Made by a program: the position numbers and the translations under genes. This document shows, in pieces, positions 1 to 44,828 of a stretch of 64,000 nt of DNA. The stretch's first letter is position 1; every line of letters starts with the position of its first letter. The notes beneath the pieces were generated by a model. That model saw nothing but the letters and a program-made list of their open reading frames with translations. It searched no databases and had not been told where the DNA came from. The DNA comes from Bacillota bacterium (GTDB taxonomy: Bacteria > Bacillota > SHA-98 > UBA4971). Location of the stretch: positions 388,650 to 452,649 of the forward strand of contig DUSX01000034.1 of NCBI GenBank assembly GCA_012842395.1, read 5' to 3'.

Positions 1-443
1 ACACCAATGGAGTTCACGTTGCGGACGAACGCGTCCTTGGAAAGGTCCACACGGAACCCGGGGATCGACTCAAGCTTGTCGAGGGTGCCGCCGGTATGCC
101 CAAGCCCGCGACCGGACATCTTCGCCACCGGCACCCCCGCCGCAGCCACGAGGGGCGCCAGAACGAGCGTTGTCTTGTCGCCGACCCCGCCGGTGCTGTG
201 TTTGTCCACCTTGACTCCGCGGATCGCCGAAAGGTCCACGGTCTCCCCTGACCTCGCCATGGCTATCGTGAGGTCGCGCGTTTCGCGCGCGCTCATCCCC
301 TGGAAGAACACAGCCATGCACCACGCCGACATCTGGTAATCCGGGATATCCCCCCGCGTGAATCCGTCCACGAGGAACGTTATCTCCTCACGGGAGAGTT
401 CCTCGCCCCGCCTCTTCTTGAGGATGATGTCATACGGCCTCAT
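1..443 (-). CDS. pdp: Pyrimidine-nucleoside (thymidine) phosphorylase, N-terminal part; gene continues beyond window start
   Basis: Manual reverse-complement translation from ATG at 443..441 gives [125 protein letters not shown]. This is the canonical pyrimidine/thymidine phosphorylase N-terminus. GGAGGG RBS 8 nt upstream. Not in ORF track because truncated at the edge. Confidence 0.8.
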
Positions 444-1500
444 CGCGCGTTTTCCCTCCTCGTGATCGCGCCAACGCGGGAGCCGGCGCCTTCCTCTGCG
501 CCCCCGCGGCAGCGTTCACGCTCGTGGATCCGAACGGACGCGGCTCTCCGACGGCGGAATCGTCGCCGGCCACGTCTCCGGGACGATCCGTCGACGCTGC
601 TGGCGCGCCCTCTACTCTTGCCCTCGGGTGCGCAGAGTCGTATATCTCCTTAAGCTTGCCCTTGGCAAGGTGCGTATAGACCTGCGTCGTCGCGATGTCG
701 ACATGTCCCAGCATCTCCTGGACGGACCGCAGGTCTGCGCCATTCTCGAGAAGGTGCGTCGCGAAACAGTGACGCAGGGTATGGGGCGTCACCCGCTTCT
801 GTATGCCCGCCTTCGCGGCGTACGCCTTGATTATCTTCCAAAAGCCCTGCCTGGTCATTCTTCTGCCGCGGGCGTTCACGAAGAGCGCGTTCTCAGCGTG
901 GTTCCGCACCAAGAGCGGCCTTGCAGAACGGAGATAAGCGCGCACCCAGCCCGACGCCACGCGGCCAACAGGAACGATCCTCTCCTTGGCTCCCTTCCCC
1001 AAGCACCTCACGTAGCCCATCTCGACGTTCAGGTCGCCGATATCGAGCGATACAAGCTCCGACACGCGCATGCCGGTCGCATAAAGCACCTCCAGCATCG
1101 CCTTGTCCCTCACCCCTGCCGGGGCCTCAGTGCTAGGCATTTCGAGAAGCCGGCCGACCTCCTCGAGGCTGAGGACGCCTGGAAGACGCCGTTCCTGCTT
1201 GGGAGAGCCGAGGTTCACCGTGGGATCCCGCTGGATCTTGCCCTCGCGATCGAGGAACCGATAAAACCCTCTGATCGCCGCGAGCTGCCTACACACGCTG
1301 GACGCGGCCTTTCCCTGCCGCTTGAGATGCTCGATGTACGCCATGATGGTGTCCTGCGTGACCTCGTCCAGCGTTCTGCCCTGGCACTCCTCCACGAAAC
1401 TGGTGAATTGGTTCAGGTCCCTAGCGTACGATTCCAGGCTGTTCTGCGCAAGGCCCCGTTCCACCGCTAGGTATGCGAGGAATTCGTCCAACAGGATCAC
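430..1500 (-). CDS. xerD: Tyrosine recombinase XerD/XerC family
   Basis: ORF 430..1707. Has ...[26 protein letters not shown]... and the catalytic C-terminus ...[38 protein letters not shown]...HPRA. Likely start is GTG at 1500 (GGAGG, then 10 nt), giving [10 protein letters not shown], which matches XerD N-termini. An unusual tail of about 60 aa follows HPRA and overlaps the pdp start. Confidence 0.8.
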
Positions 1501-1883
1501 GCCGCCCTCGCCTCCGTCGCGGGACAAATCCAGACCTGCCACGCTTGCCCGCTGTTTCCAGTATAACACCATGCAAGGGTGGCCGCAATTTCCTGCGCGG
1601 GGCCGGAGGACAAGCTCGGGCGTGCCGCCTGGGCATGAGGTCACGCGTTTTCCCTCGCCTCGTGACTTCGTGAGTTGTCGGCCGTCCCAGTGGTCCCACG
1701 AGAGCATTCAAGGTCAGGCCAGAGGCCGGACCCAGCCTGTCCCTGCTCTGGCGAACTACGCCTAAGTGAGGGTGCGGTGGCCCTTGCCTCATTCCTAGCA
1801 GTTGCCGGTCGCCGGCGTTGAACATCGGCAACCCCGGGCGTGGCCCCTCCGCCGGGAAGTAGCGCGAGCCTTCGGCGACATGC

Positions 1884-2537
1884 CTAAAGCAGGTACTTGG
1901 ATACCAGCCTGATGAACGCCGGTGCTACGTACGTGTCCGCGACGCTCCCGATGACTAGGAGGATCACGGCTCCGAGACACACGGCCGCCGTGAAGACGAA
2001 TTGCGGGTAGATTTGGGTTCTCCTCTGGCTCAGCCTGTCCACGGCGAGAGTCACCGCAAACGCGAGCGAAACCTCGCACGCCGCCAGTATCGCAGGGATT
2101 ATGAAGACATGCTGGGGGAGCACAGACGCGGCCGCCAGGATGACCCCCTTGGCACCCATCTCGTCGACGAGGAAACCCACGGTGAATCCGATGACGAAGC
2201 CTCTCAGGAACAGCAGAACCAGGATGCCGGGAGCCCCAATGACGGTGAGCCCTAACACCAGGGCCAACGCGACGGTCTTAAGGTTATTGTACAGCGCCTG
2301 CCTGGACGCAGCCGCCCCGCCAGCCTGGCCCTGTCCCTGGCCTCCGAAGCCCCTGAAAAAAACCATGAGGTCCTCAGCCAACTCCGCTCTTTGGCTCTCG
2401 GGCAATGCCTTCACCGAAAGGGAGCCGAAGATGACCCCCATCACAAACATGAACATGACCAGGACGAGGACGGGCAGGTGCCGCCTCAGGGAATCGCCGG
2501 AAGGCGCGAGAAGGGAACGCGAATCGTCCAGCATCAC
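1884..2537 (-). CDS. spoIIM: Stage II sporulation protein M (SpoIIM) family membrane protein
   Basis: 217 aa, multi-pass hydrophobic. Pattern ...VLPQHVFIIPAILAACEVSLAFAV... is typical of SpoIIM/DUF95. Firmicutes synteny with nudF and xerD. Confidence 0.65.
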   Translation of the reverse strand: MMLDDSRSLLAPSGDSLRRHLPVLVLVMFMFVMGVIFGSLSVKALPESQRAELAEDLMVFFRGFGGQGQGQAGGAAASRQALYNNLKTVALALVLGLTVIGAPGILVLLFLRGFVIGFTVGFLVDEMGAKGVILAAASVLPQHVFIIPAILAACEVSLAFAVTLAVDRLSQRRTQIYPQFVFTAAVCLGAVILLVIGSVADTYVAPAFIRLVSKYLL

Positions 2538-3546: not shown

Positions 3547-4740
3547 TCAGCGCACCGCTTGTGCGATCTTCCCCGCGAGCATGCCCGCAGCGCCCGCTGC
3601 CAGGAAGAACACCGGGTCCTCGTCTGGCCCCCTCCCCATGGACGTGACGCGGATGCCTTCCCGGTTGAGCCTGTCGACAGCCGGCCGTCCGTCCTCGGTG
3701 AGAATGACGTGCCGCCGGTCTATCCCGTGCTCGGCAAGTTGAGCCATGAGGCGGCGCCACTCGCTGCGATGCAGCTCTGGCAAGGCTACAAGGCAAGGTA
3801 CCAGGGCGATCTCAGAAAGCACCGTGAGGGTGTGGTGGCTCACCCCGAAATGCCTCGCACGCTCGTCCGAGAAACTCACCCTGGGGACAATGACCGGCGT
3901 CCCTCCGAGAGAATACGCCGCGTTTACCACTTGTCCCTGCTCGATTCCGGAGAACCCGTACTTCGTCCCCGTGCCTGCTTGCCCAGGGCCCATGCCTACG
4001 ATGACGGCGTCAGCACGGGCGCACGCTCGCGCCGCAGCGAGGGCAGAGTAGACCGTCACGGCCTCGAGGTCGCCGCCGAACGCGTGGCCGCAGGTGATGA
4101 CCGAGTCGACGAGGCCTCTCTTCTTTAGGGCCGGCACGAGCGTGCTGTACGCAACTGGTAAGGCTCCTCCGTCCGTCATCACGTATACGACCCGCGCCGC
4201 TCCGCCCGCAGCCTCCTTTATCCCGGCCGCAGCAGGCGCGATCATGCTGTGAAGCTCACAAGCGACCACCGGTATCCCACCCAGTGAGCGAAACGCCTCT
4301 ATCTCCCGCCGGTGCGGGCTCGCCTCCTCCTCGACGGCCAAGCACCGGACCTGCACCGGCGTGTAGCGGACCTTCATTATGTGGCCTGGACCCGCTCGCA
4401 TGTCCAAACGCGTCCTGCCGATCACCCACATCACGAAGTGGTGGCCCCCAGTGCCGAGGCCAAGCTCCACCGCGGTGGTGTTCAGGACGACCTCGTCGCC
4501 CGGCGCACACGGACCGGTCAACGCCTCGTAACACAACGCCTCCGCAGGCTGGCCGTCGCAAACCACGTCAGCCTTGGCCACCCCTGGACCGAATGGCGTA
4601 ACCGACTTCACCACGCCGGTCCTCGCCCTCACCAACGCGCCGGTCGCCGCAGCGCTGAAGGACCCTCGTGCAGGGGTACGGCGCCCCGTGTCGTATGTTG
4701 TACAGTGAGAACTGGTGTCGTGCGCCAAATGTGGTGCCAC
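3547..4740 (-). CDS. Conserved hypothetical protein, possibly DUF3866/YqxK-like
   Basis: 397-aa ORF with no recognisable catalytic motif. Sits next to nudF as yqxK does in Bacillus. Family assignment is from memory, not a search. Start uncertain. Confidence 0.35.
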   Translation of the reverse strand: MAPHLAHDTSSHCTTYDTGRRTPARGSFSAAATGALVRARTGVVKSVTPFGPGVAKADVVCDGQPAEALCYEALTGPCAPGDEVVLNTTAVELGLGTGGHHFVMWVIGRTRLDMRAGPGHIMKVRYTPVQVRCLAVEEEASPHRREIEAFRSLGGIPVVACELHSMIAPAAAGIKEAAGGAARVVYVMTDGGALPVAYSTLVPALKKRGLVDSVITCGHAFGGDLEAVTVYSALAAARACARADAVIVGMGPGQAGTGTKYGFSGIEQGQVVNAAYSLGGTPVIVPRVSFSDERARHFGVSHHTLTVLSEIALVPCLVALPELHRSEWRRLMAQLAEHGIDRRHVILTEDGRPAVDRLNREGIRVTSMGRGPDEDPVFFLAAGAAGMLAGKIAQAVR

Positions 4741-5361: not shown

Positions 5362-5976
5362 GTGAGCAGGTGGCAGTTTTGGATCGCGATCTTCATCGCC
5401 CTCGCGCTTGCGGGCTGGTCCGTGGGCTCTTCCATGAGGCTCGCCCGTGACCTTGCGCGTGTGGAGAAGGACCTCGACCGGGTCTTCACCGACCTCGCAG
5501 CGCTCTCGAAGCGCGTCTCGGAGATCAAGACGGCCGCCGTGGCTCCCCAGCCCGCTGCTCAGGTGACCGTGTACTATGCCCGCACCACGCTCACTGACTC
5601 GTACCTCGTGCCAGTCAAGGCTGCGGTGCCCGCAGGGACCGATGCTATGCGCGGTGCGGTGGAACTGCTCGCAAGGGGGCCCGCGCCCGAGACTGGCCTG
5701 GAGAGGCTCATCCCGGAAGGGACGAGGGTGTTAGGTGTCACCGCCAGCGGGGATCTCGCGACCGCCGACTTCTCAAGCGAGATCCGGACCCGTTTCCCCG
5801 GCGGCAGCCGCACTGAAGAGCTGCTTGTCTGGTCGATCGTGAATACCCTCACGGAATTCCCCGGGATTACAAGGGTGCAGATCCTTGTCGAAGGCAAAAA
5901 AGAGGAGAGCATCGGCGGCCATGTTGGCATCGACACTCCCCTGGAAAGGAACCCCGACCTCATCAGGCCTCAATAG
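5362..5976 (+). CDS. GerM-domain sporulation/germination protein with N-terminal membrane anchor
   Basis: GTG start 9 nt after AGGAGG. TM segment WQFWIAIFIALALAGWSV, then a GerM-like domain (…TVYYARTTLTDSYLVPV…RVQILVEGKKEESIGGHVGIDTPLER). Confidence 0.55.
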   Translation: MSRWQFWIAIFIALALAGWSVGSSMRLARDLARVEKDLDRVFTDLAALSKRVSEIKTAAVAPQPAAQVTVYYARTTLTDSYLVPVKAAVPAGTDAMRGAVELLARGPAPETGLERLIPEGTRVLGVTASGDLATADFSSEIRTRFPGGSRTEELLVWSIVNTLTEFPGITRVQILVEGKKEESIGGHVGIDTPLERNPDLIRPQ

Positions 5977-6038: not shown

Positions 6039-6593
6039 TCACCCTGCCTTGAGGGCCGCGGCCGCGAGGTCCATTCCCTTTGCGAGGGCTTTCTCGTTGA
6101 GCGGGATGAGCCCGTGGCGGCGCTCCGGAAGCACCTTGTTCATCGCCTCAAGCACCGTGTCGACGCTCACCACGCCCGTCACACCAAGGTACGCACCGAG
6201 AGCCACCATGTTCGCCACTCTCGTGTCGCCGATGTCATTGGCTATCTCGTTCGCGGGGACCGCAAGCACCCTGACATCGTTCCTCGCAGGCTTGACGTCC
6301 ACGAGAGAGCTGTTATATATGATGAGGCCGCCAGGAGTCACCATGCCCTGGAATTTCTCCAGAGACGGCCTGTTCATCGCGACCACGCTCGTGGGCTCAC
6401 TCACAAGGGGCGAAGCGATCTCTCTCTCCGACACCACCACGCCACAATTGGCCGTGCCGCCGCGCATTTCCGGTCCGTACGACGGCATCCAGGTCACGTT
6501 CCGGCCTTCCATCATTCCGGCGTATGTCACGAGCTGTCCCATGAGGAGCACGCCCTGCCCGCCGAATCCCGCGAAGATGACCTCCTCGTGCAT
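6039..6593 (-). CDS. 2-oxoacid:ferredoxin oxidoreductase gamma subunit (VOR/KOR/POR family)
   Basis: AGFGGQGVLLMGQLVTYAGMMEGRNVTWMPSYGPEMRGGTANCGVVVS is the gamma-subunit signature. Confidence 0.85.
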   Translation of the reverse strand: MHEEVIFAGFGGQGVLLMGQLVTYAGMMEGRNVTWMPSYGPEMRGGTANCGVVVSEREIASPLVSEPTSVVAMNRPSLEKFQGMVTPGGLIIYNSSLVDVKPARNDVRVLAVPANEIANDIGDTRVANMVALGAYLGVTGVVSVDTVLEAMNKVLPERRHGLIPLNEKALAKGMDLAAAALKAG

Positions 6594-6595
6594 GC

Positions 6596-7342
6596 CTAGC
6601 CCACCTCCGGTACCTTGGTGTATTCCCCAAGCGGGTAATACACGGCCATCTTGTCATCCACCCACTTCAGGGCCTCAGCAGGGGTCATCCCCCAGTTCGT
6701 GGGGCACGTGGACAGGAATTCCACGAGGCTGAACCCCTTCCCCTCGAGCTGCGTCTCGAACGCCTTCTTCAGTGCGCGCTTGGCCTTCGCGACGTTGGCA
6801 GGGCTCGTCACAGAAACGCGGGCGATGTACGCGACCCCAGAAAGCGACGACAGGAGCTCGCACACTCTTATCGGGTGACCGGCCACCTCGGGATCGCGTC
6901 CCTTTGGAGACGTGGTGGTCTTCTGGCCAGGAAGGGTCGTGGGGGCCATCTGCCCGCCGGTCATGCCGTATATGGCGTTGTTGACAAAGATGACGGTGAT
7001 CTTCTCGCCCCTCGAAGCCGCGTGCACTATCTCGCCCGCTCCGATCGAAGCGAGGTCCCCGTCGCCCTGATAGCTAAAGACGACCGCGTTCGGCAGGGCA
7101 CGCTTGATCCCGGTCGCCACCGCGGGCGCCCTGCCGTGGGACGCCTCAACGAAGTCACAGTTGAAATACTCATACGCCAGCACAGCGCATCCGACCGGCG
7201 AGATCCCTATGGCCCGCTCACGCACGCCGAGCTCGTCGATGACCTCGGCGATGAGTCGATGGATGATGCCGTGGGTGCACCCCGGACAGTAATGGGTTGG
7301 CACGTCCGCCAGCGCCTCAGGTCGCCCGAACAGCTTCTGCAT
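6596..7342 (-). CDS. 2-oxoacid:ferredoxin oxidoreductase beta subunit (TPP-binding)
   Basis: [21 protein letters not shown] and [39 protein letters not shown] (TPP-binding motif). Confidence 0.85.
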
Positions 7343-7345
7343 TCT

Positions 7346-8410
7346 TCACGCCCCCTTCTCCACGATCTTGACGATCTCGTCCATTATCTCCCTGGGCGAG
7401 GGGCTCATGCCTCCGGTTCTCCCATAGAAGTGCACGGGCTTGGTTTCACCGCAAGCAAGCCGAACGTCCTCGATCATCTGACCGAGGCTCATCTCCACTA
7501 CCAGCACATGTGCTGCCCCGGCGGTTGCGGCGGCGAGCGCCTCGTATGGGAACGGCCACAAGCTTATCGGCCGGAAGAGACCGACCCGCAGCCCGCGCTC
7601 CCTGGCCCTCTCGAGTGCAGCGCGCGCGATACGGGCCGTAGTCCCGTAAGCCACCAGGACCACGTCCGCGTCCTCCGTCATGTACGTGGCGTAACGCACC
7701 TGCTCCGCGGCCATGCGCCTGTACTTCTCCGCAAGCCGAAGGTTGTGCTTCTCAAGCTTCGCCGGGTCGAGAAAGAGCGACGTTATCACGTTCTTCGGCC
7801 TGCCGCAAGCGCCGGTGGTGGCCCATGTCTTCGCAGGGAGGTCCGCCGTGGGCCGCGGCTCGGGCATCTCCACGGGCTCCATCATCTGACCTAGGATGGC
7901 ATCGCCGAGGATCATCACGGGGTTACGGTACATGTCCGCGAGGTCGAAGGCCTCCATGGTGAGGTTCACGAGTTCCTGAACCGTGCACGGGGCGAGCACC
8001 AGAAGGTGATAATCCCCGTGACCGCCCCCCTTGGTCGCCTGGAAGTAATCTGACTGCGCCCCCTGTATGCCGCCGAGCCCGGGCCCTCCGCGCACGATGT
8101 TCACGATAACGCACGGGAGCTCCGCGCCGGCCATGTACGAGATAGCCTCCTGCATGAGGCTTATCCCCGGGCTCGATGAGGTGGTCATGACCCGCGCCCC
8201 CGCGCACGCGGCACCGTAGACCATGTTGCTTCCCGCGACCTCGCTTTCGGCCTGCAGGAACACCCCTCCAACCTCCGGCATGCGCCTAGCCATGTACTCG
8301 GGGATCTCGTTCTGCGGTGTTATCGGGTACCCGAAAAAGCACCTACAACCTGCCATAATGGCGGCCTCAGCCACCGCCTCGTTCCCTTTCATCAGAACCT
8401 TCTCAGCCAT
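7346..8410 (-). CDS. 2-oxoacid:ferredoxin oxidoreductase alpha subunit
   Basis: [36 protein letters not shown]... is the canonical alpha-subunit N-terminus. Confidence 0.85.
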
Positions 8411-8422
8411 GCGCCCTCCCCC

Positions 8423-8626
8423 CTATCTGTAGACTTCGATGGCCACTTCAGGGCACATCCGGGCGCACGCGGTGCACGAGTTGCATCGTTCCTCATCTGT
8501 TATAGTGGCCGGATGAAATCCCTTGCTGTTGAAGTGCTCGGCCATGGTCAGGGCTTTCCGCGGACAGAAGGTTACGCACAGCTCGCACCCTTTGCACCGC
8601 TCCTCATTGAACACGACTTTGGGCAT
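8423..8626 (-). CDS. 2-oxoacid:ferredoxin oxidoreductase delta subunit (2x[4Fe-4S] ferredoxin)
   Basis: 67 aa with CKGCELCVTFCP and CNSCTACARMCP motifs. Confidence 0.8.
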   Translation of the reverse strand: MPKVVFNEERCKGCELCVTFCPRKALTMAEHFNSKGFHPATITDEERCNSCTACARMCPEVAIEVYR

Positions 8627-8638
8627 CTTGCCAACCTC

Positions 8639-9757
8639 CTACCTGTACGCCTTGGCCTGCTCCTCGCCCCTGAGGACGCGTAGAGAGGCCTCGGCGAGCG
8701 CCTGCATCTCGTTTTCGCCCGGGTACACCATGACTGGAGCTATAAAGCTCACTCTATCGCGTATCCAGTCCACCAGGCGGCGCGAGTGCGCGAGACCCCC
8801 CGTGAGGATTATAGCATCAACCTCCCCTGAAAGCACGGCCGCGTACGCCCCTATTTCCTTGGCGACCTGGTACGCCATGGCCTCGTACACAAACGCGGCA
8901 CGCTCGTCGCCTGCATCGATGCGCCGTTCGACCTCCGCAGCGTTGCTGGTTCCGAGGTACGCCACAAGCCCTCCTCCGCCCACGAGCTTTCTTCTCATCT
9001 CATCCTCGGTGTACTTGCCGGAAAAGCAGAGGTCCACCACGCCGAGGGTGGGAAGAGCGCCCGCTCTTTCGGGAGTGAACGGGCCCTCACCGTCCAGGCC
9101 GTTGCTTACGTCGACCACCCGTCCTTTGAGGTGGGCGCCGACGCTGATGCCGCCGCCCAGATGCGCCACGACGAGGTTCAGGTCTTCGTACCGCGAGCCC
9201 ATGTCCCTCGCCGCCTTCCTGGCGACGGCCTTGTGATTGAGCGCGTGGAAGATGGTGCGTCGCGGAATCTCAGGCAGCCCCGAAAGCCTCGCAACATCCC
9301 ATAGCTCGTCGACGACCACGGGGTCTGCGATGAATGCTCGCACCCCCGCCCGGGCCGCGATCTCCCGCGCCAGAAGCGCGCCAAGGTTCGAGGCGTGGGA
9401 CACCGACCCTCCACTGGTGAGGTCGCGCACCATCTCGTCGTTCACCTCGTACACTCCGCTCTCCACAGGCTTGAGAATGCCTCCGCGACCCGCCACTGCG
9501 TCGAACCCGCTCACGGGCTCTTTGTGTCTTTCAAGGGCTTCGAAGATAGCGTCAAGCCTCATGCGATACTGCGCCCAGACGTCGCCGAGCTTCGCCAGCT
9601 CCGCGCTGTCATGGGAGATAGTCTCCTGGAAAACCACATGGTCATCAAGGTAGACGGCGATCTTGGTCGAAGTTGAGCCGGGGTTGATCACGAGAATACG
9701 GAAACCACCGTGTTCGCTGGGCTTAGCCTCAGGCGCAACGCCTTCTGTGCGCGCCAT
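8639..9757 (-). CDS. buk: Butyrate (branched-chain acyl) kinase
   Basis: RILVINPGSTSTKIAVY... is the acetate/butyrate kinase family. RBS GAGGGGG 8 nt before the ATG at 9757. Confidence 0.85.
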   Translation of the reverse strand: MARTEGVAPEAKPSEHGGFRILVINPGSTSTKIAVYLDDHVVFQETISHDSAELAKLGDVWAQYRMRLDAIFEALERHKEPVSGFDAVAGRGGILKPVESGVYEVNDEMVRDLTSGGSVSHASNLGALLAREIAARAGVRAFIADPVVVDELWDVARLSGLPEIPRRTIFHALNHKAVARKAARDMGSRYEDLNLVVAHLGGGISVGAHLKGRVVDVSNGLDGEGPFTPERAGALPTLGVVDLCFSGKYTEDEMRRKLVGGGGLVAYLGTSNAAEVERRIDAGDERAAFVYEAMAYQVAKEIGAYAAVLSGEVDAIILTGGLAHSRRLVDWIRDRVSFIAPVMVYPGENEMQALAEASLRVLRGEEQAKAYR

Positions 9758-9954
9758 ACACTGCGCCCCCTCTTCATCCCGAGTTTGCCGGACGGCGCCT
9801 CAGCGTGCCGGGGAGAGCCATCGGCTTCGGCGGAGCTCGAGCTCGCACCCTGCAAGGTCTTTCATCCTTAGCCCGGATGAGCCGTCAAGCTCCGCCGGTC
9901 CTGCTGAAAGCGAAAGCCGCACACATGCTCCCGGCCCGGGTCACCTTGACCGCC

Positions 9955-11025
9955 TTACGCGGGCACGTACACTTTACGAATCTTGCCCAGTTTCTCGATT
10001 CTTTCTTCCGCGAGCCGGGCCGCCGCCTTGTACGTCGGAATCCCGTCCCGCTCCGCTATCGCTATCACCTTCAGGACGTTGTCATAAATGCCCGCCGCTT
10101 TGCGCAAGGCCCTTTCCCTGTTGTAACCGTAGAATTCGTCAGCGACGTTTATCACTCCTCCCGCGTTGATGATATAATCGGGCGCATAGAGTATCCCTGC
10201 ATCCTCCAGGGCGTCGCCGTGCCGATCCTCTTTGAGCTGGTTGTTCGCGGCCCCGGCCACGATCTTGCACTTAAGCCTCGGGAGCGTCTCGTCGTTTATC
10301 ACCGCGCCAAGGGCACACGGGCAAAACACGTCACACTCGACATCGAACACCTTGTCATAGGGAACGGGCTTCGCCCCGAAATCGTCAGCCGCCTTCTTGA
10401 CCCGGTCCTCGTAGATGTCGGCGATGTATACCTTCGCCCCTTCCTCGACAAGATACCTCACCACATGGTAGCCCACGTGGCCCACTCCCTGGACCACGAC
10501 GGTCTTGTCTTTGAGCGAGTCGCTTCCGAAGACCTCCAGCGCACAAGCCTTCATGCCGCGCACGACCCCGAACGCCGTGACGGGCGACGGGTCGCCACTT
10601 GAGCCGGTCGTCGCAGATAGACCCAGCACGTGGTCGGTCTCCATGTGCACGGTCTCCATGTCTTCCACACTCACGCCCACATCCTCGGCCGTGATGTACC
10701 GTCCGCCGAGCGTATCCACGAACCTCCCGAACGCGCGGAAGAGCGCCTCTGACTTGTCTTTGCGCGGATCTCCGATGATAACCGCTTTGCCCCCGCCGAA
10801 ATCGAGGCCGGCAGCGGCATTCTTGTACGTCATACCCCGGGCGAGTCGCAAGGCGTCGGTGAGCGCCTCCTCTTCGGACGAGTAGGGCCACATCCTACAC
10901 CCGCCGAGGGCAGGGCCGAGGGTTGTATCATGAATCGCTATGATGGCCCGCAGCCCCGAGACCTCGTCGGTCGCAAAGACCACTTGTTCAAACCCGTAGC
11001 GTCCCATCTCTTCAAAGAGCTTCAA
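9955..11025 (-). CDS. ldh: Leucine (branched-chain amino acid) dehydrogenase, Glu/Leu/Phe/Val DH family
   Basis: …[81 protein letters not shown] matches the leucine dehydrogenase N-terminus. True start is TTG at 11025 with AGGAGG 8 nt upstream ([14 protein letters not shown]). The upstream 75 aa of the track ORF are spurious. Confidence 0.85.
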
Positions 11026-11138: not shown

Positions 11139-12050
11139 TCACCTCGACAGAAGCACTCCGAGGGCGAGCGAGTACACCTTCGCCATGTGAGAGTCGGACC
11201 TCGACGTGACCACCACGGGCGCCCTCGCGCCCACCACGACGCTCGCAGCGCACCCGCCTGCAAGATAGACGAGCGCCTTGTAGAACACATTGCCCGTCTC
11301 GATGTCCGGCACGATGAGTATGTCCGCTCGGCCGGCGACCGGGCTCGAGATGCCCTTATGGTTCGCAGCTGCAGCCGATATGGCGTTGTCCAGCGCAAGC
11401 GGACCGTCCACGATCGCTCCTTTGATCTGCCCGCGTTCAGACATCTTGGCGAGACACGCGGCATCGATGGTCGCGGGCATGTCGGGATTCACGTTCTCCA
11501 CAGCCGCCAATGCCGCAACGCGCGGTTCCGCGATTCCGAGCGCATGCGCCACGTCAATGGCGTTCTGCGTGATCTGCGCTTTCTCAGCAAGCCCGGGCGC
11601 GATGTTCATCGCTCCGTCGCTGAAGATGAGGAGACGCTCGAACCTGGGCACTTCGAACACAGACACGTGCGAAAGCAGTCGCCCTGTACGAAGACCGACC
11701 TCCTTGTCAAGAACCGCCCTGAGAACATCCGCCGTGCTCACAAGCCCCTTCATCAGAAGGTCCGCCTTCCCCGCGCTGACCATGGCAACGCCTGCGCGAA
11801 CCGCCGCAAGTGTGTCCCTCTCCTCCACGAGCTCGTGGGACGACAGGTCGATGTCGCTTTCGGCGGCGGCTTTGCCTATGGCCACGGGATCCCCAATGAG
11901 GATACACCTCGCTATCCCCCGCCGCGACGCCTCGTCTGCTGCCAGGAGCACTTCCGGGTCTGCTGCAGCCACCACGGCGCACGTCCTCGGGCCCACCTCC
12001 CTCGCCGCCTTCGCGAGGTCATCAAGGCTCCTTATGACTCCGGCCCCCAA
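11139..12050 (-). CDS. ptb: Phosphate butyryltransferase (phosphate acyltransferase)
   Basis: …[36 protein letters not shown]…[17 protein letters not shown]…[17 protein letters not shown] aligns along its length with Clostridium Ptb. Probable TTG start at 12050 (AAGGGGGG, then 6 nt). The track ORF extends to 12092. Confidence 0.85.
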
Positions 12051-12063
12051 ATCCGTCCCCCCT

Positions 12064-13134
12064 TCATTCGTAAGTCCCAAGCTCCTCCTCACCGCGAAGG
12101 ACTCTGAAAGCCCCCATTGCGAGGGCTTCCATCTCTCTCTCGCCCGGATAGACCCTTACCTCGGCGATGAATTCGATCCGACTCCGGATCATGTCCACGA
12201 GACGGGTCGCATTCGCGAGGCCTCCCGTTATGAGAACGGCGTCCACGTCGCCAGCGAGCACGCAAGCCATCGCACCGATCTCTTTGGCCACCTGATAAGC
12301 CATTCCCTCATACACGAGCCGCGCGAACTCATCACCGCGGGCGATTCTCGCTTCGACCTCGACCGCGTCTGACGTCCCAAGATAAGCCGCGATGCCCCCT
12401 CGTCCAACGAGTCTCCTCACGAGCTCCTCTCTTGTGTACTTGCCGGAATAGGCGAGCCGGACAAGCGGGACCACAGGCACCCCACCCGCCCGCTCCGGAC
12501 TGTAGGGACCCTGCTCATTGGCGTTGTTCACGTCGATGATGCGCCCGCCACGGCACGCCGCCACAGATATGCCCCCGCCCAGGTGCGCGACGATGTAGTT
12601 TGCGACATCGAGGTCCGCCTGCATCTCCCGCGCCGCCTGCCTCAGCGTGGCCTTGATATTCAGCGCGTGGCTCAGACTGCGCCTGGGAAGCTCCGGCAGG
12701 CCCGACACCCTGGCCAGAGGCTCGAACTCGTCGCACGACACCGGGTCCACTACATAGGCCGGCACGCCCCAGGCGTCCGCTATCGCGCGGGCGATGATGC
12801 CCCCGAGGTTCGAGGCGTGGGGCCCTTGCACCTGGTTCCGAAGGTCCTCCAGCATCCTGTCGCTCACGACGTAAGTGCCGCCGGCGCAAGGCCGCAAAAG
12901 ACCACCACGAGCCACGACCGCCGCGACCGAATCCGGTTCCACGGCCGCCTCCTTCAGGGCGGCAATGACCTCGGACAGTCGATACTCGAATTGGTCCATG
13001 ATGCTGGAAAACGAGGCGAGCGTTTTGTGATCGTGGACAAGCTTCCTCTCGAAAAGCGGACCGGACGGGGTGTACAGGGCAATCCTGGTGGCAGTGGAGC
13101 CGGGATTAATCACGAGGACCTGCAACGTTTCCAC
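12064..13134 (-). CDS. buk: Butyrate kinase paralog
   Basis: METLQVLVINPGSTATRIALY... GTG start. Second acetate/butyrate-kinase family gene in the same operon. Confidence 0.85.
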   Translation of the reverse strand: METLQVLVINPGSTATRIALYTPSGPLFERKLVHDHKTLASFSSIMDQFEYRLSEVIAALKEAAVEPDSVAAVVARGGLLRPCAGGTYVVSDRMLEDLRNQVQGPHASNLGGIIARAIADAWGVPAYVVDPVSCDEFEPLARVSGLPELPRRSLSHALNIKATLRQAAREMQADLDVANYIVAHLGGGISVAACRGGRIIDVNNANEQGPYSPERAGGVPVVPLVRLAYSGKYTREELVRRLVGRGGIAAYLGTSDAVEVEARIARGDEFARLVYEGMAYQVAKEIGAMACVLAGDVDAVLITGGLANATRLVDMIRSRIEFIAEVRVYPGEREMEALAMGAFRVLRGEEELGTYE

Positions 13135-13248
13135 CTTCAGATCGTCTCCCGCCGCAGACCCGGGCAGGCCTGCCAGGTTGTCGGCTTGTCGCCAGCCTGT
13201 TCATGTGGGCCGAGAGGCCTTGCGCGCGGTGGCCGTAAGTTGATCCCA

Positions 13249-13264
13249 TGCAAGTGTCATGCCA
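13249..13264 (-). promoter_or_regulatory. Sigma-54 (-24/-12) promoter for the buk2-ptb-ldh-buk-oxidoreductase operon
   Basis: Minus-strand sequence TGGCATGACACTTGCA equals TGGCAT-N5-TTGCA, with correct GG-N10-GC spacing. About 100 nt upstream of the buk2 start. Confidence 0.5.
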
Positions 13265-13337
13265 TTCCCCTCGACGACCCTGATGCCCGCGATCGCCCGC
13301 AGACCAGGCAGCGCCGGCCGGATGACGGCAGGCTGCG

Positions 13338-13384
13338 TGCAAATCCGTGCAGTCCTCGCGGGCCGCGGCGTGCAAAAGATTGCA
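13338..13384. promoter_or_regulatory. Two candidate enhancer (UAS) sites, TGCA-N6-TGCA
   Basis: TGCAAATCCGTGCA (13338-13351) and TGCAAAAGATTGCA (13371-13384). They lie 75-120 nt upstream of the sigma-54 promoter, the typical position for an enhancer-binding protein. Confidence 0.4.
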
Positions 13385-13630
13385 CGCCGTCGGTCCCTCG
13401 CTTCCCTTCATACATACGAGGCGCACGAGCGGCCCTTGAGTCGGCCAACGAACCACGGGGTTCGTCCAAGCCCGCATCAACCTCGCACGTAAAGCCGGGC
13501 CGCACGCTCATCCTTCGCCCGCTTTTTGAAGGGATCGAGTCCTAGACGCAGAAAGATTCAAGGGATGCAAGGGATGCGCCAGCGCTTTCCCAAAGCGCAA
13601 ATCAGATCCGTAACGGAAGGGGGCATGCTG

Positions 13631-14479
13631 ATGGACGTCACGAGGCTCGCGGTGATCGGTGCCGGACAAATGGGGTCCGGTATAGCACAAGTGGCTGCGG
13701 CGGCCGGGGTCCAAGTAGTCATGTTGGACGTCTCGGAAGACCTCGCGCGAAGGGGTCTCGTCGCCGTCGAACGGGGGCTCTCCCGGGCGGTTGAGAAGGG
13801 CAAGATGGGACCCGAGGAACGGGACGCAGCGCTCGCACGGATCCGCGTCGGGGCAGACCTTTCCCTCGCGTCCGACGCCGACGTGGCGATCGAGGCTGTC
13901 ACGGAGAACGTCGATATCAAGAAGGATGTCCTCCGGAGGGTGGACGACCTCCTGCCGCCCAGGAGCATCATAGCCTCCAACACGTCTTCCATATCTATCA
14001 CGCGGCTTGCGGCCGCCACGAAACGGCCGGAGAAGGTCATCGGCATGCATTTCATGAATCCTGTTCCTGCCATGAAACTGGTGGAGATCATATCAGGCCA
14101 GGCCACTTCGGACGAGACGAGAAGGGACGCCTGGGCCCTCGCGGAAAGGATGGGGAAGACCCCCGTGTCGGTCTCCGACTACCCTGGGTTCGTCTCCAAC
14201 AGGCTCCTCATCCCCATGATCAATGAAGCAGCGTATTGCCTCATGGAAGGCGTTGCATCCCGTGAGGATATCGACACCGTGATGCGGCTCGGCATGAACC
14301 ATCCTATGGGCCCACTCGCCCTCGCCGACCTCATCGGGCTCGACACGTGCCTGTACATCATGGAGATCCTCTACGAGGGTTTTGGGGACCCGAAGTACCG
14401 GCCGTGTCCCCTCCTCCGCCGAATGGTGGACGCCGGGTGCCTGGGCAAAAAGACAGGGAAAGGGTTCTACACATATTGA
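13631..14479 (+). CDS. hbd: 3-hydroxybutyryl-CoA dehydrogenase (NAD-dependent 3-hydroxyacyl-CoA DH)
   Basis: MDVTRLAVIGAGQMGSGIAQVAAAAG... Rossmann N-terminus plus a C-terminal 3HCDH domain. ATG at 13631 with an 8-nt spacer after GGAAGGGGG. Track ORF is over-extended to 13526. Confidence 0.8.
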   Translation: MDVTRLAVIGAGQMGSGIAQVAAAAGVQVVMLDVSEDLARRGLVAVERGLSRAVEKGKMGPEERDAALARIRVGADLSLASDADVAIEAVTENVDIKKDVLRRVDDLLPPRSIIASNTSSISITRLAAATKRPEKVIGMHFMNPVPAMKLVEIISGQATSDETRRDAWALAERMGKTPVSVSDYPGFVSNRLLIPMINEAAYCLMEGVASREDIDTVMRLGMNHPMGPLALADLIGLDTCLYIMEILYEGFGDPKYRPCPLLRRMVDAGCLGKKTGKGFYTY

Positions 14480-14502: not shown

Positions 14503-16302
14503 ATGGCGCAGGCTAAGAAGTTTCGGCTCTCCAACAGGGAACTCGAGGTCATATTGAACTCCACCCACGACGGGATGATCGCTGTGGACCGCCACGGTCT
14601 CATCACCATCTTCAACGCGGCCGCCGCCCGCATCACTGGGCTCGATCCGGATGAGATGATAGGACGGCGCGCGCAGGATGTGATCCCGAACACCAGGCTC
14701 CACGTGGTGCTGGAGACGGGCCAGGCCGAGTTGAACCAGCAACAGGTGTTAGGTGGGGTCAAGATCATCACCAACCGCGTGCCTGTAAGAGACGCCGAGG
14801 GCAGAGTGATCGGTGCGGTTGCGGTTTTCCGGGACATCAGCGAGGTCATCTCGCTCGCTGAGGAGATCACGAACCTGCGCCAGATCCAAGGCCTCCTGGA
14901 GGCCATAATCAATTCAACTCAGGACGCGATCTCGGTCGTGGACGAGAACGGCATGGGGCTCCTGATCAACCCCGCGTACACCCGTCTGACCGGACTCACC
15001 GAGGAGGACGTCATCGGCAAGCCGGCCACCACCGATATCGCGGAGGGTGAGAGCATGCACATGAAGGTGCTTCGCACGCGGCTTCCCGTGCGGGGCGCCC
15101 ACATGAAGGTCGGCCCGCGAAAGAAAGAGGTCATAGTCCATGCCGCGCCCATCATCGTTGATGACAAGCTCAAGGGGAGCGTGGCTGTGATTCACGATAC
15201 ATCCGAGATCCGGAGGCTCACCGAGGAGCTTGACAGGGCGAAAAGGCTCATCAGGCGGCTCGAGGCCAAGTACACCTTCGACGACATAGTCGGCGTAAGC
15301 CCGAAGATGGCACGGGCAATCGAACAAGCCAGGCGCGTGGCCGCGACGCCGGTCACCGTTCTCCTGAGAGGGGAGAGCGGAACCGGAAAGGAGCTCTTCG
15401 CACACGCCATCCACAACGCGAGCGACCGGGCACGAGGCCAGTTCATAAGGGTGAACTGCACGGCGATCGTAGATACGCTCCTCGAGTCGGAGCTCTTCGG
15501 CTACGAGGAAGGCGCTTTCACGGGCGCGAAGCGAGGCGGGAAGCGCGGCCTCTTCGAGGAGGCGAGCGGCGGGACCATCTTCCTGGACGAGGTGGGGGCC
15601 ACGAACCTCGCGCTGCAAGCCAAACTGCTGCGAGTCCTTCAGGAGAAGGAGATCGTGCGGGTCGGTGACACACGTCCCATACCCGTGGACGTCCGCGTGA
15701 TAGCCGCCACCAACACCGACCTCGAGAAGGCCGTCCGCGAGGGGCGGATGCGGGAGGATCTGTACTACCGGCTCAATGTGGTCCCCATTTTCATCCCACC
15801 CCTTCGGGAGCGCATCGAAGATATTCCTCTCCTGTGCCACAGCCTGATACGTCGGTTCAACCAGGCTTACGGGAGAAACGTGAGCCGCATCTCAGAGGAG
15901 GCCCTCGACATCCTCGCCGAGTACGATTGGCCGGGGAACGTGAGGGAGCTCGAGAACGTTCTTAGCCGCGCCATCATCAACATGCACTTCAGCGAGGTAG
16001 AGATCCTGCCGCGCCACCTGCCCGCCCTGGGCAGGTTCCAGCAGGGTCTTCAGGCGTGGCAAGCAGGCCAGGCAGTCCCGGGGAAGGGCTCCGAGGCCGA
16101 AGCAGAAGCCGAGGCGCTCGGGCGGGGCGGGCCATCCGCACAGGGCGTCCCAAGCCTTCGCGAGGCCGTCGAGCATGCCGAGAAACGGGCCATCCTTCGT
16201 GCCCTTCAGGCCTCAAAGGGCAGCAAGACCGCGGCCGCGAAGCTGCTCGGCATAGGCCTCCGCAGCCTCTACTACAAGATCAAGCGTTATCACATCTCGT
16301 GA
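14503..16302 (+). CDS. Sigma-54-dependent transcriptional activator with two PAS domains and a C-terminal Fis-type HTH
   Basis: Walker A GESGTGKE, GAFTGA motif (EEGAFTGAKRGG), ...WPGNVRELEN..., C-terminal TAAAKLLGIGLRSLYYKIKRY. N-terminal PAS repeats. Confidence 0.85.
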   Translation: MAQAKKFRLSNRELEVILNSTHDGMIAVDRHGLITIFNAAAARITGLDPDEMIGRRAQDVIPNTRLHVVLETGQAELNQQQVLGGVKIITNRVPVRDAEGRVIGAVAVFRDISEVISLAEEITNLRQIQGLLEAIINSTQDAISVVDENGMGLLINPAYTRLTGLTEEDVIGKPATTDIAEGESMHMKVLRTRLPVRGAHMKVGPRKKEVIVHAAPIIVDDKLKGSVAVIHDTSEIRRLTEELDRAKRLIRRLEAKYTFDDIVGVSPKMARAIEQARRVAATPVTVLLRGESGTGKELFAHAIHNASDRARGQFIRVNCTAIVDTLLESELFGYEEGAFTGAKRGGKRGLFEEASGGTIFLDEVGATNLALQAKLLRVLQEKEIVRVGDTRPIPVDVRVIAATNTDLEKAVREGRMREDLYYRLNVVPIFIPPLRERIEDIPLLCHSLIRRFNQAYGRNVSRISEEALDILAEYDWPGNVRELENVLSRAIINMHFSEVEILPRHLPALGRFQQGLQAWQAGQAVPGKGSEAEAEAEALGRGGPSAQGVPSLREAVEHAEKRAILRALQASKGSKTAAAKLLGIGLRSLYYKIKRYHIS

Positions 16303-43218: not shown

Positions 43219-43580
43219 GGTTCACCACCCTCTTTGTTCCTCCCGGCCTCCCGTGCGCCGAGAAGCCCCCATAGTTCCTCGCCAATGTGGAGGAGCTCGG
43301 GCACGGGCCTAGCAAAGGAATGGGGGTACGGAGGATTCACCGCGACCAGCCGTCCCCTGACCTTTCTCCCAAGCACCGTGGTGATCGTCACCTCATCTCC
43401 AACGAGCGCGTCGTGGTCCAGATACCCCTTGATTCGCAGCTCCAAAGGAACCTTCTGGGTGTCCTCGGGGACTTGCGGGGCCCGCTCGCCAGGTTTCAGA
43501 ATGATCGAGTGCACCTGCACGTACTCCCCGGACCGCACGCGCTTGCTGTTTTCTGACTCCGGAACGTTCACGTCACACAT
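43215..43580 (-). CDS. ortA: 2-amino-4-ketopentanoate thiolase alpha subunit
   Basis: ~120 aa (…GEYVQVHSIILKPGERAPQVPEDTQKVPLELRIKGYL…) between ord and ortB, with overlapping stop/start codons. Start may be internal. Confidence 0.65.
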   Translation of the reverse strand: MCDVNVPESENSKRVRSGEYVQVHSIILKPGERAPQVPEDTQKVPLELRIKGYLDHDALVGDEVTITTVLGRKVRGRLVAVNPPYPHSFARPVPELLHIGEELWGLLGAREAGRNKEGGEP

Positions 43581-44634
43581 GCTCCCTGCGTCCTCCCTCC
43601 CCCCGGGCGAGCTTCGCTATGTCTCCCATGAAGCACGCGGGCACACGCAGGTCTTTCATGGTGACAAGGCCGGGCTCCGCATTCAACACATGCGGGATCA
43701 TGTTCACCGCGATGGCGATCGTGCCGGTGCCGCCCGGGATCTCCGGCTTTATCGCTAGGTTCACGGGCGGGGTGCCTTCGATCCAGATGTAGTCCCCGGT
43801 CTCCACGCCCTCCAGACCCGGCAGAACCTGTTGCGGATGTTCGAGGGTGATCACTTCCTCCCCGTTCATGAAGGCATGAGCCGTGTGGTTGCAGCCCGCA
43901 ACCATCCCCGGCTTCACGTCGACGTAAGGCGTCTTGCGCCTCGTGGCCGAGACGATGGGCTCGCGGGTCTGCCGGATCTCGTCAAGCTTCCACCCGAGCG
44001 CATCCGCGATCATACCGCATGACTGGACAAACCCGATGTGTCCGACTATGGTGCCTTTAGCAAGCCCATCTCTGAACTCCTCGACGGTGGTGCCCACGCC
44101 CTGGGTTCGCATGACCGTCGGCCCGAAAGGAGAGAGGTCGTTGACGCGCCTGGCCTTCACTCTTCTGACCCCGGTGCAGATGCCGGTGAGAGCGATTATG
44201 AGAGTATCGAGGACAAACCCTGGATTGATGCCCGTGCCGAGCACGCTCACCCCGTACTTGCGCGCAAGCTGGTCGATCTCTGCAGCAAGCTTCGGGTCGG
44301 TTTGCCAGAGATACGCCATCTCCTCCGCCACCGTGATGACATCCGACCCCGCGGCCATGGCCGCGTCCAGCTGGTGATAGATCTCTTTCGCAAACGACGA
44401 GGTGGCGTGAAGCACCACGTCCGCGCCCGCCTCGAGGGCTTCCTCCGGATTGCTCGTGACCCTCACGCCAAGCTCGCGTCCAACCCCGAGTACCTCCCCC
44501 AGATCGCGCCCTGCTTTCTCTGGCCTCGAGGCTACGGCCCCAACGATCCTGACTCCTTTACGCTCTAGCAGGGCTCTCGCCATGCCGGAGCCCATCGCAC
44601 CGAGCCCCCAACACACCACCGTGACATCGTCCAC
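43573..44634 (-). CDS. ord: 2,4-diaminopentanoate dehydrogenase (DapB-like N-terminal Rossmann fold)
   Basis: GTG at 44634 (AAGGGGGAG, then 8 nt) gives MDDVTVVCWGLGAMGSGMARALLERKGVRIVGAV… First gene of the operon. Track ORF extends to 44679. Confidence 0.75.
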   Translation of the reverse strand: MDDVTVVCWGLGAMGSGMARALLERKGVRIVGAVASRPEKAGRDLGEVLGVGRELGVRVTSNPEEALEAGADVVLHATSSFAKEIYHQLDAAMAAGSDVITVAEEMAYLWQTDPKLAAEIDQLARKYGVSVLGTGINPGFVLDTLIIALTGICTGVRRVKARRVNDLSPFGPTVMRTQGVGTTVEEFRDGLAKGTIVGHIGFVQSCGMIADALGWKLDEIRQTREPIVSATRRKTPYVDVKPGMVAGCNHTAHAFMNGEEVITLEHPQQVLPGLEGVETGDYIWIEGTPPVNLAIKPEIPGGTGTIAIAVNMIPHVLNAEPGLVTMKDLRVPACFMGDIAKLARGEGGRREHV

Positions 44635-44814
44635 TGCGATCACTCCCCCTTGCATAGTTCCTGGTGAGCTGCGCAGCACCGAACCGGCAGCCGCAGCCTA
44701 CTCGCTGCATACTCTGTCAACTGGCCGCACCGAACCGCGAGCGGCGCGCCTCGTGCCACCGTTGCCTCACGCATGCTTGGATGACCAGCCCGCTCGGCCG
44801 CATCTATGCAGCTA

Positions 44815-44828
44815 TGCATAATTATGCA
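44815..44828. promoter_or_regulatory. Perfect 14-bp palindrome TGCATAATTATGCA (TGCA-N6-TGCA) upstream of the ornithine operon, inside a TGCA-rich tract
   Basis: Seen directly. Same TGCA-N6-TGCA architecture as the two sites upstream of the buk2 sigma-54 promoter. A possible -24/-12 element TGGCAC-N5-GCGCC lies on the minus strand at 44743-44758. Confidence 0.35.

Follow-up and report, generated by a model that had tools for sequence, protein, structure and literature searches.

The question raised by this locus is how transcription of an eight-gene operon on the minus strand, buk2-ptb-ldh-buk-vorDABG, is controlled. The operon lies in the window (the whole stretch of 64,000 nucleotides that was analysed), and the first-pass annotation, made from the letters of that stretch, had read it as a branched-chain fermentation operon driven by a sigma-54 promoter with two upstream enhancer sites and a regulator encoded nearby. 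It is proposed that the region in front of buk2 controls the operon in the manner of BkdR, through sigma-54, and that the operon serves to break down branched-chain amino acids, a reading to which we give a probability of about 0.85 on comparative sequence evidence. Contigs identical to the window come from biogas fermenter metagenomes, and the host is an uncultured Bacillota MAG that appears to be a spore-forming member of the phylum.

The first gene of the operon, buk2 (12064-13125, minus strand), encodes a butyrate kinase paralogue (NCBIfam butyrate kinase, 486 bits). Its start codon is likely the TTG at 13125, which is preferred over the GTG at 13134 given by the ORF finder; this start yields a product beginning with MQVLVINPGS, the N-terminus MQVLV(I/V)NPG being as in the relatives L083 and L087, and a 353-aa product is called in two of three identical contigs. 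Gene ptb (11139-12050, minus strand) encodes a phosphate butyryltransferase (Pfam PTA_PTB, 2.9e-55, and NCBIfam) and starts with a TTG at 12050 that is served by a ribosome-binding site. The product of ldh, also named bcd (9955-11025, minus strand; TTG start at 11025 preceded by AAAGGAGGAG), is a Leu/Val-type NAD-dependent amino-acid dehydrogenase with ELFV dehydrogenase domains, 59-66% identical to the product of the gene after ptb in Bacillaceae bkd operons. Gene buk (8639-9757, minus strand) encodes a butyrate (branched-chain acyl) kinase (NCBIfam butyrate kinase, 543 bits). The last four genes, vorDABG (6039-8626, minus strand), specify a 2-oxoisovalerate-type 2-oxoacid:ferredoxin oxidoreductase (VOR) according to both Pfam and NCBIfam: vorD (8423-8626), vorA (7346-8410), vorB (6596-7342) and vorG (6039-6593) carry the Pfam domains Fer4, POR_N/PFOR_II, TPP_enzyme_C and POR, and NCBIfam PRK07119, "3-methyl-2-oxobutanoate dehydrogenase subunit VorB", scores 569 bits. 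Since the gene that follows (5362-5976, plus strand) is convergent, vorG is taken to be the last gene of the operon. All of the earlier gene assignments, including the four oxidoreductase subunits, hold by Pfam and NCBIfam. The genes expected of a BkdR regulon, ptb, a Leu/Val dehydrogenase gene and buk, are all present in the operon; the genes of the branched-chain keto acid dehydrogenase (BCKDH) complex, lpdV-bkdAA-bkdAB-bkdB, are not, and VorDABG stands instead. Judged from their families, the operon products would together cover the whole oxidative branch of Leu, Ile and Val fermentation, with a yield of ATP. Further downstream of the operon are, besides the convergent gene, which encodes a Germane-domain protein, genes for a DUF3866 protein (3547-4740, minus strand) and SpoIIM (1884-2537, minus strand), and the gene at 430-1707 (minus strand) encodes a tyrosine recombinase, of either the XerC/D or the phage-integrase type. 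It is this gene content that makes the host appear to be a spore-former.

On the other side of buk2, an intergenic region of 496 nt (13135-13630) separates the operon from a divergent unit. This unit consists of hbd (13631-14479, plus strand; NCBIfam PRK05808, 442 bits), encoding a 3-hydroxybutyryl-CoA dehydrogenase, and of a gene for a BkdR-like enhancer-binding protein of 599 aa (14503-16302, plus strand), which starts 23 nt after hbd and is probably co-transcribed with it.

The sigma-54 -24/-12 element TGGCATGACACTTGCA is read on the minus strand at 13264-13249. The first-pass annotation had called it near-consensus; it is in fact the single match to the exact pattern TGGCAY-N5-TTGCW on both strands of the 64 kb window, where 0.08 matches are expected, it has the GG and GC dinucleotides 10 nt apart within TGGCAC-N5-TTGCW, and it is conserved in relatives. 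At least one exact match occurs in 8 of 100 shuffled windows. When up to two mismatches are allowed, 22 matches are seen against 24.3 expected, which is the chance rate, so that only the exact match is informative. Transcription of the buk2 operon is predicted to start near 13238, about 12 nt downstream of the -12 GC, and the promoter position together with the TTG at 13125 predicts a 5' leader of about 113 nt (13126-13238, minus strand). The element had been placed about 100 nt upstream of the operon; its position stands, and the distance is corrected to about 124 nt between the -12 element and the buk2 start codon. No Rfam family matches the intergenic region, the predicted leader included, and the predicted fold of the leader is no more stable than those of its shuffles (z = 0.56); on these two grounds the idea of a riboswitch or other RNA leader in front of buk2 was rejected. 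The intergenic region contains no intrinsic terminator on either strand, and no protein with an RpoN box is encoded within the 64 kb window.

This intergenic region holds another -24/-12-like element of like orientation, TGGCGCATCCCTTGCA (13581-13566, minus strand), which has one mismatch to TGGCAC-N5-TTGCW and might be an additional promoter in tandem or even the true sigma-54 promoter. We regard this as highly improbable, since elements with up to two mismatches occur no more often than by chance, the closest relative (L084, 97% activator identity) lacks it and reads CGACGCGTCCCTTGAA, and it is situated upstream of the enhancer sites and not downstream of them. The element arose by a small local duplication, CCCTTGCATCCCTTGAA in the window corresponding to CCCTTGAA in L084, and is rejected as a chance match.

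Two dyads precede the proposed promoter at 13264-13249 and are candidate enhancer sites (upstream activating sequences, UAS), neither of them being assigned to a strand. The distal one, UAS1 (13368-13387), is a perfect 8+8 dyad, GCGTGCAA-TCTT-TTGCACGC, with the core TGCAAAAGATTGCA at 13371-13384, which reads TGCAATCTTTTGCA on the minus strand (13384 to 13371). The proximal one, UAS2 (13334-13355), has the core TGCAAATCCGTGCA at 13338-13351, reading TGCACGGATTTGCA on the minus strand (13351 to 13338). The two TGCA-N6-TGCA sites are thus found where the first-pass annotation had put them and with the sequences that it gave. The TGCA-N6-TGCA pattern occurs five times in the window against 0.69 expected, and two of the five occurrences fall within the 120 nt upstream of the promoter. 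UAS2 is 87 nt and UAS1 is 120 nt upstream of the -24 TGG, which places their centres at about -107 and -140 from the predicted start; they are 33 nt apart from centre to centre, or three helical turns, and hence are on the same face of the helix. The other three occurrences of the pattern (37193, 42776 and 44815) do not fit the TGCAA-N4-TTGCA box described below, have no -24/-12 element near them and are considered to be outside the BkdR-type system. The last of them is an AT-rich palindrome, (A)TGCATAATTATGCA, at 44815-44828, which stands out from its GC-rich intergenic surroundings and precedes the gene at 43573-44679 (minus strand) by about 140 nt; it is not a BkdR box, and may be the operator of an unrelated regulator.

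The activator encoded next to hbd is composed of two PAS domains, an AAA+ domain and an HTH_8 domain (Pfam: Sigma54_activat, 1.2e-70; AAA_lid_14; HTH_8, 1.8e-13) and has the GAFTGA loop at 15511-15528. The description of the 14503-16302 product as a PAS-PAS sigma-54 enhancer-binding protein is therefore confirmed by its Pfam domains and by this loop. Over residues 15-599, which include PAS1, PAS2, AAA+ and HTH, it shows 57% identity to the 690-aa BkdR of a Bacillus cereus-group locus (L029), and PAS2 is very highly conserved with respect to Bacillus BkdR. The Bacillus-type protein of about 690 aa (L029, 5641-7713) begins with an N-terminal Rossmann-like domain of about 100 aa (MKQKVLIVGAGEGGS...), which is missing from the protein in the window; the latter begins at PAS1. 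The same domain is also missing from many clostridial homologues of about 575-600 aa, and both length classes occur among the homologues. The absence of this domain means that the signal input may differ from that of Bacillus BkdR. At the position of GAFTGA in the window, B. cereus BkdR has GAFSGA. An identity with PrdR was considered and rejected, the score being 485.6 bits against the equivalog cutoff of 795 for NCBIfam NF041552. From the 57% identity, the synteny and the validated promoter at L029, we identify the activator as a BkdR orthologue. The first-pass annotation had not recognised the pairing of this site motif with this regulator; that statement does not stand, since a BkdR orthologue with a sigma-54 promoter is a known pairing.

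A word-indexed protein search turned up an identical activator, encoded by an uncultured Firmicutes MAG, and a clade of relatives with identities of 85-97% and of about 70%. The contexts of seven relatives (L081-L087; activator identity 69-97%) were compared, six of them at 86-97% and L087 at 69%. In a MAFFT alignment of the window with six relatives the mean column identity is 65%, and the invariant columns cluster at TGCA/TTGCA of UAS1, at TGCA/TGC of UAS2 and at TGGCA/ACA/TTGC of the -24/-12 element, with diverged flanks; about seven isolated invariant columns lie outside these three elements. Such clustering is a classic phylogenetic footprint. All six close relatives have UAS1 at 119-120 nt from -24 and UAS2 at an offset of 33 nt from UAS1, and L087 has three boxes 32 nt apart.

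The hbd-activator pair is kept in all close relatives, sometimes with acd-thl before hbd, and its orientation is not constant. The order (acd-thl-)hbd-activator is co-directional with buk2 in L083 and L087; in the window, L082, L084 and L085 the hbd-activator cassette has the opposite orientation, as has acd-thl-hbd-activator in L081 and L086. This inversion, which affects part of the clade, is judged against the buk2 operon and against the gene for PNPase. Genes acd-thl are deleted in some members of the clade including the window, and L082 retains a remnant of the 5' end of acd upstream of hbd.

These rearrangements bear on whether the dyads could be operators for the divergent hbd-activator unit, acting in autoregulation or bound by some other repressor, and not enhancers of buk2 at all. 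The arrangement in the window would allow it, the dyads being in the shared 496-nt divergent intergenic region and 250-290 nt upstream of hbd, and autoregulation by enhancer-binding proteins is common. In the co-directional loci L083 and L087, however, the dyads lie between the activator stop codon and buk2, a long way from the start of hbd or acd. The footprint and its spacing to -24 stay constant, whereas the dyads differ by more than 100 nt in how far they are from the start of hbd or acd, and for this reason the dyads appear to be tied to the sigma-54 promoter and not to the divergent hbd. An exclusive operator role for hbd is thus quite unlikely; a secondary autoregulatory role of the dyads in the divergent arrangement is possible.

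To place the proposed enhancer-promoter pair in a wider context, one genome per species was scanned, giving 594 activator relatives, and the best 80 of the 594 loci (40-64% identity) were used. In most of these 80 the activator is syntenic with ptb/ldh/buk operons. In Bacillaceae the activator gene is followed co-directionally by ptb-ldh-buk, the start of the bkd operon with its BCKDH genes, while the genes next to it in Clostridia and related anaerobes are (buk2)-ptb-(ldh)-buk-vorDABG; VOR also takes the place of BCKDH in Clostridia loci such as L001, L002, L005, L012 and L043. The syntenic set comprises the 67 loci, among the best 80 of 594, that have an operon gene no more than 900 nt after the activator gene. 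The pattern TGG[CT]A-N6-TTGC is present in the spacer between the activator gene and the ptb/ldh/buk operon in 63 of the 67, and within 170 nt upstream of the promoter a TGCAA-N4-TTGCA box with at most one mismatch is found in 57 of those 63. Random 170-nt windows of the same loci contain such a box in 1.8% of cases, so that the enrichment is roughly 50-fold. There are 1.65 boxes per locus on average, and the consensus of 103 sites is aGCATGCAA-wwww-TTGCAtg. In Bacillaceae and Clostridia the dyads are always between the activator gene and the operon, which is a further point against their being operators of hbd.

A weight matrix built from the distant orthologous loci only finds UAS1 as its best match in the whole window (score 19.5), UAS1 being a GC-rich version of the family consensus. 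UAS2 matches the family box less well, with TGCAC for TGCAA (C for A at position 5) and a matrix score below 12; its TGCA/TGC is conserved in the relatives at a fixed offset from UAS1. The view of the two dyads as enhancer sites is therefore supported by conservation and by fixed geometry, the binding of the activator to them being putative. Another matrix match, at 9847-9868 in the ldh-buk spacer, is absent from L082, L083 and L087, has a score within the range of shuffles and is rejected. Activator homologues of 51-61% identity also occur in Nitrospirota, Thermotogae and other non-Bacillota MAGs (L006, L008, L032, L061-L063, L070, L071 and L073). In the DNA examined at L006, L008, L032, L061-L063 and L070-L073 there is no adjacent buk, ptb, ldh or vor and no strict -24/-12 element, and the Nitrospirota and Thermotogae loci were for that reason set aside as evidence on the box. 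At L029, of the B. cereus group, the promoter TTGGCACGGTATTTGCT lies upstream of ptb together with two boxes of the TGCAAT-N2-ATTGCA type, and TTGGCACGGTATTTGCT is exactly the HD73_4468 promoter reported for Bacillus thuringiensis (PMC4428206). The activity of this promoter (P4468) is markedly reduced in a mutant of bkdR (HD73_4469) of B. thuringiensis HD73 and is controlled by sigma-54 (PMC4428206).

The comparative data also bear on whether the operon is mainly transcribed from a housekeeping sigma-A promoter, the -24/-12 match being non-functional. No sigma-70-like promoter is found on either strand in the 650 nt from 13050 to 13700, although a consensus scan is a weak test at 62.6% G+C, where promoters may escape it. 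Among the relatives the -24/-12 positions are invariant amid diverged flanks, and they recur in 63 of the 67 orthologous loci, and the orthologous B. thuringiensis promoter is sigma-54-dependent (PMC4428206). Transcription mainly from a sigma-A promoter is accordingly very unlikely. That the motifs match by chance alone, in intergenic DNA rich in G+C, has a negligible probability: the exact matches in 8 of 100 shuffles speak for it, but the promoter and the two dyads are packed within 136 nt in the right orientation and at the right distance to the operon, with the cognate activator adjoining, and the phylogenetic footprint and the roughly 50-fold box enrichment in 63 genomes effectively refute it. 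The claim that the promoter serves a branched-chain amino acid fermentation operon is likewise backed by the comparative evidence.

We propose the following mechanism for the BkdR-type, sigma-54-dependent control favoured here, in which we infer from sequence the dependence on sigma-54, the binding of the activator to the dyads and the identity of the inducer. Sigma-54 RNA polymerase would form a closed complex at the -24/-12 element (13264-13249). The activator, with its PAS-PAS-AAA+-HTH make-up, would bind as dimers to UAS1 and UAS2, whose centres are at about -140 and -107, and the dimers would build up an AAA+ oligomer or ring, which DNA looping would bring into contact with the sigma-54 holoenzyme, and ATP hydrolysis would open the promoter via the GAFTGA loop. 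The activity of the activator should be gated by its PAS domains, which, as in Bacillus, presumably sense a branched-chain amino acid or its keto acid. The resulting transcript would span all eight genes. Leu, Ile or Val would then be deaminated by Ldh to the 2-oxoacid, which VorDABG would decarboxylate to the branched acyl-CoA with formation of reduced ferredoxin; Ptb would convert the branched acyl-CoA to the acyl phosphate, from which the two Buk enzymes would generate the branched-chain fatty acid and ATP.

The proposed layout of the enhancer resembles that of Escherichia coli glnAp2, in which the NtrC enhancer consists of two strong dyad sites near -140 and -108. Both have two dyads separated by about three helical turns, those in the window being centred at about -140 and -107, and both would act on the sigma-54 holoenzyme by looping. 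They differ in the site, TGCA-N6-TGCA in the window and TGCACC-N5-GGTGCA at glnAp2, and in the signal input, which is by PAS control in the former and by a phosphorylated receiver domain in the latter.

The closest known system is the bkd operon of Bacillus subtilis, which is reportedly ordered ptb-bcd-buk-lpdV-bkdAA-bkdAB-bkdB and controlled by BkdR and SigL. The gene for a PAS-containing sigma-54 activator is said to adjoin that operon, which reportedly has a -24/-12 promoter and requires a UAS. Common to this operon and the one in the window are the adjoining PAS sigma-54 activator, the -24/-12 promoter, the leading position of ptb, the Leu/Val dehydrogenase gene and buk, and a role in branched-chain catabolism. 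In contrast to B. subtilis with its NAD-dependent BCKDH, the operon in the window has a ferredoxin-dependent four-subunit VOR and an extra buk2; its activator of 599 aa is without the N-terminal domain of about 100 aa and is encoded divergently in a unit with hbd, and its host is a high-GC anaerobe. BkdR has been known since 1999 as the SigL-dependent activator of the Bacillus ptb-bcd-buk-bkd operon (Debarbouille et al. 1999, J Bacteriol 181:2059, as cited in PMC4428206 and PMC4524646). In B. cereus ATCC 14579 (BC4165; BC4163-4157) the bkd operon is down-regulated in an rpoN mutant (PMC4524646). The window differs from B. thuringiensis and B. cereus in the downstream oxidoreductase, and its activator is 57% identical from PAS1 to HTH. 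The circuit is thus an anaerobic version of the Bacillus BkdR/sigma-54 switch, a concept that is itself already known, and it extends the Bacillus BkdR/SigL paradigm to a ferredoxin-dependent pathway.

Clostridia are known to control amino-acid fermentation by sigma-54 regulons, as described for PrdR, LeuR, OrdR and ZypR (Nie et al. 2019, PMC6615313). They share with the present locus a local enhancer-binding protein, a UAS and a -24/-12 element that direct a Stickland-type or fermentative pathway. None of the 39 groups in PMC6615313 corresponds to a buk-ptb-vor regulon or to its regulator, and the supplementary data examined contain no ptb, buk or vor entries. A literature search for a link between sigma-54 and VOR, buk or ptb found nothing specific, and one on BkdR and RegPrecise gave no useful result. 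It is conceivable, if on balance doubtful, that the VOR-linked anaerobic branch of BkdR, with its short activator, its TGCAA-N4-TTGCA box and its rigid 33/120 nt geometry, is not yet formally described. If it is not, the box consensus drawn from 63 genomes would define the BkdR operator explicitly across Bacillota for the first time. It would provide a transferable operator motif for regulon prediction in uncultured Bacillota and would allow the control of branched-chain fatty acid production in digesters and guts to be predicted genome-wide. Isobutyrate, isovalerate and 2-methylbutyrate are products that mark the fermentation of protein in guts and in anaerobic digesters, and the organism of the window recurs in biogas-reactor metagenomes; if its Ldh-VOR-Ptb-Buk route is under a BkdR-type sigma-54 circuit, this would offer a testable regulatory handle.

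One further element of the intergenic region, TTTTTGAAGGGATCGAGTCCTAGACGCAGAAAGATTCAAGG at 13520-13563 (plus strand), lies 70-110 nt upstream of the divergent hbd-activator unit and is conserved in L081-L087, where it precedes acd or hbd. Its core, TG[A/C]AGGGAT-N12/13-G[A/G]AGAAAGA, is retained even in the relative of 69% identity. The element does not match the sigma-70 consensus and bears what we take to be a vague resemblance to a sigma-H promoter; it could be a promoter or an operator that controls the regulator gene itself.
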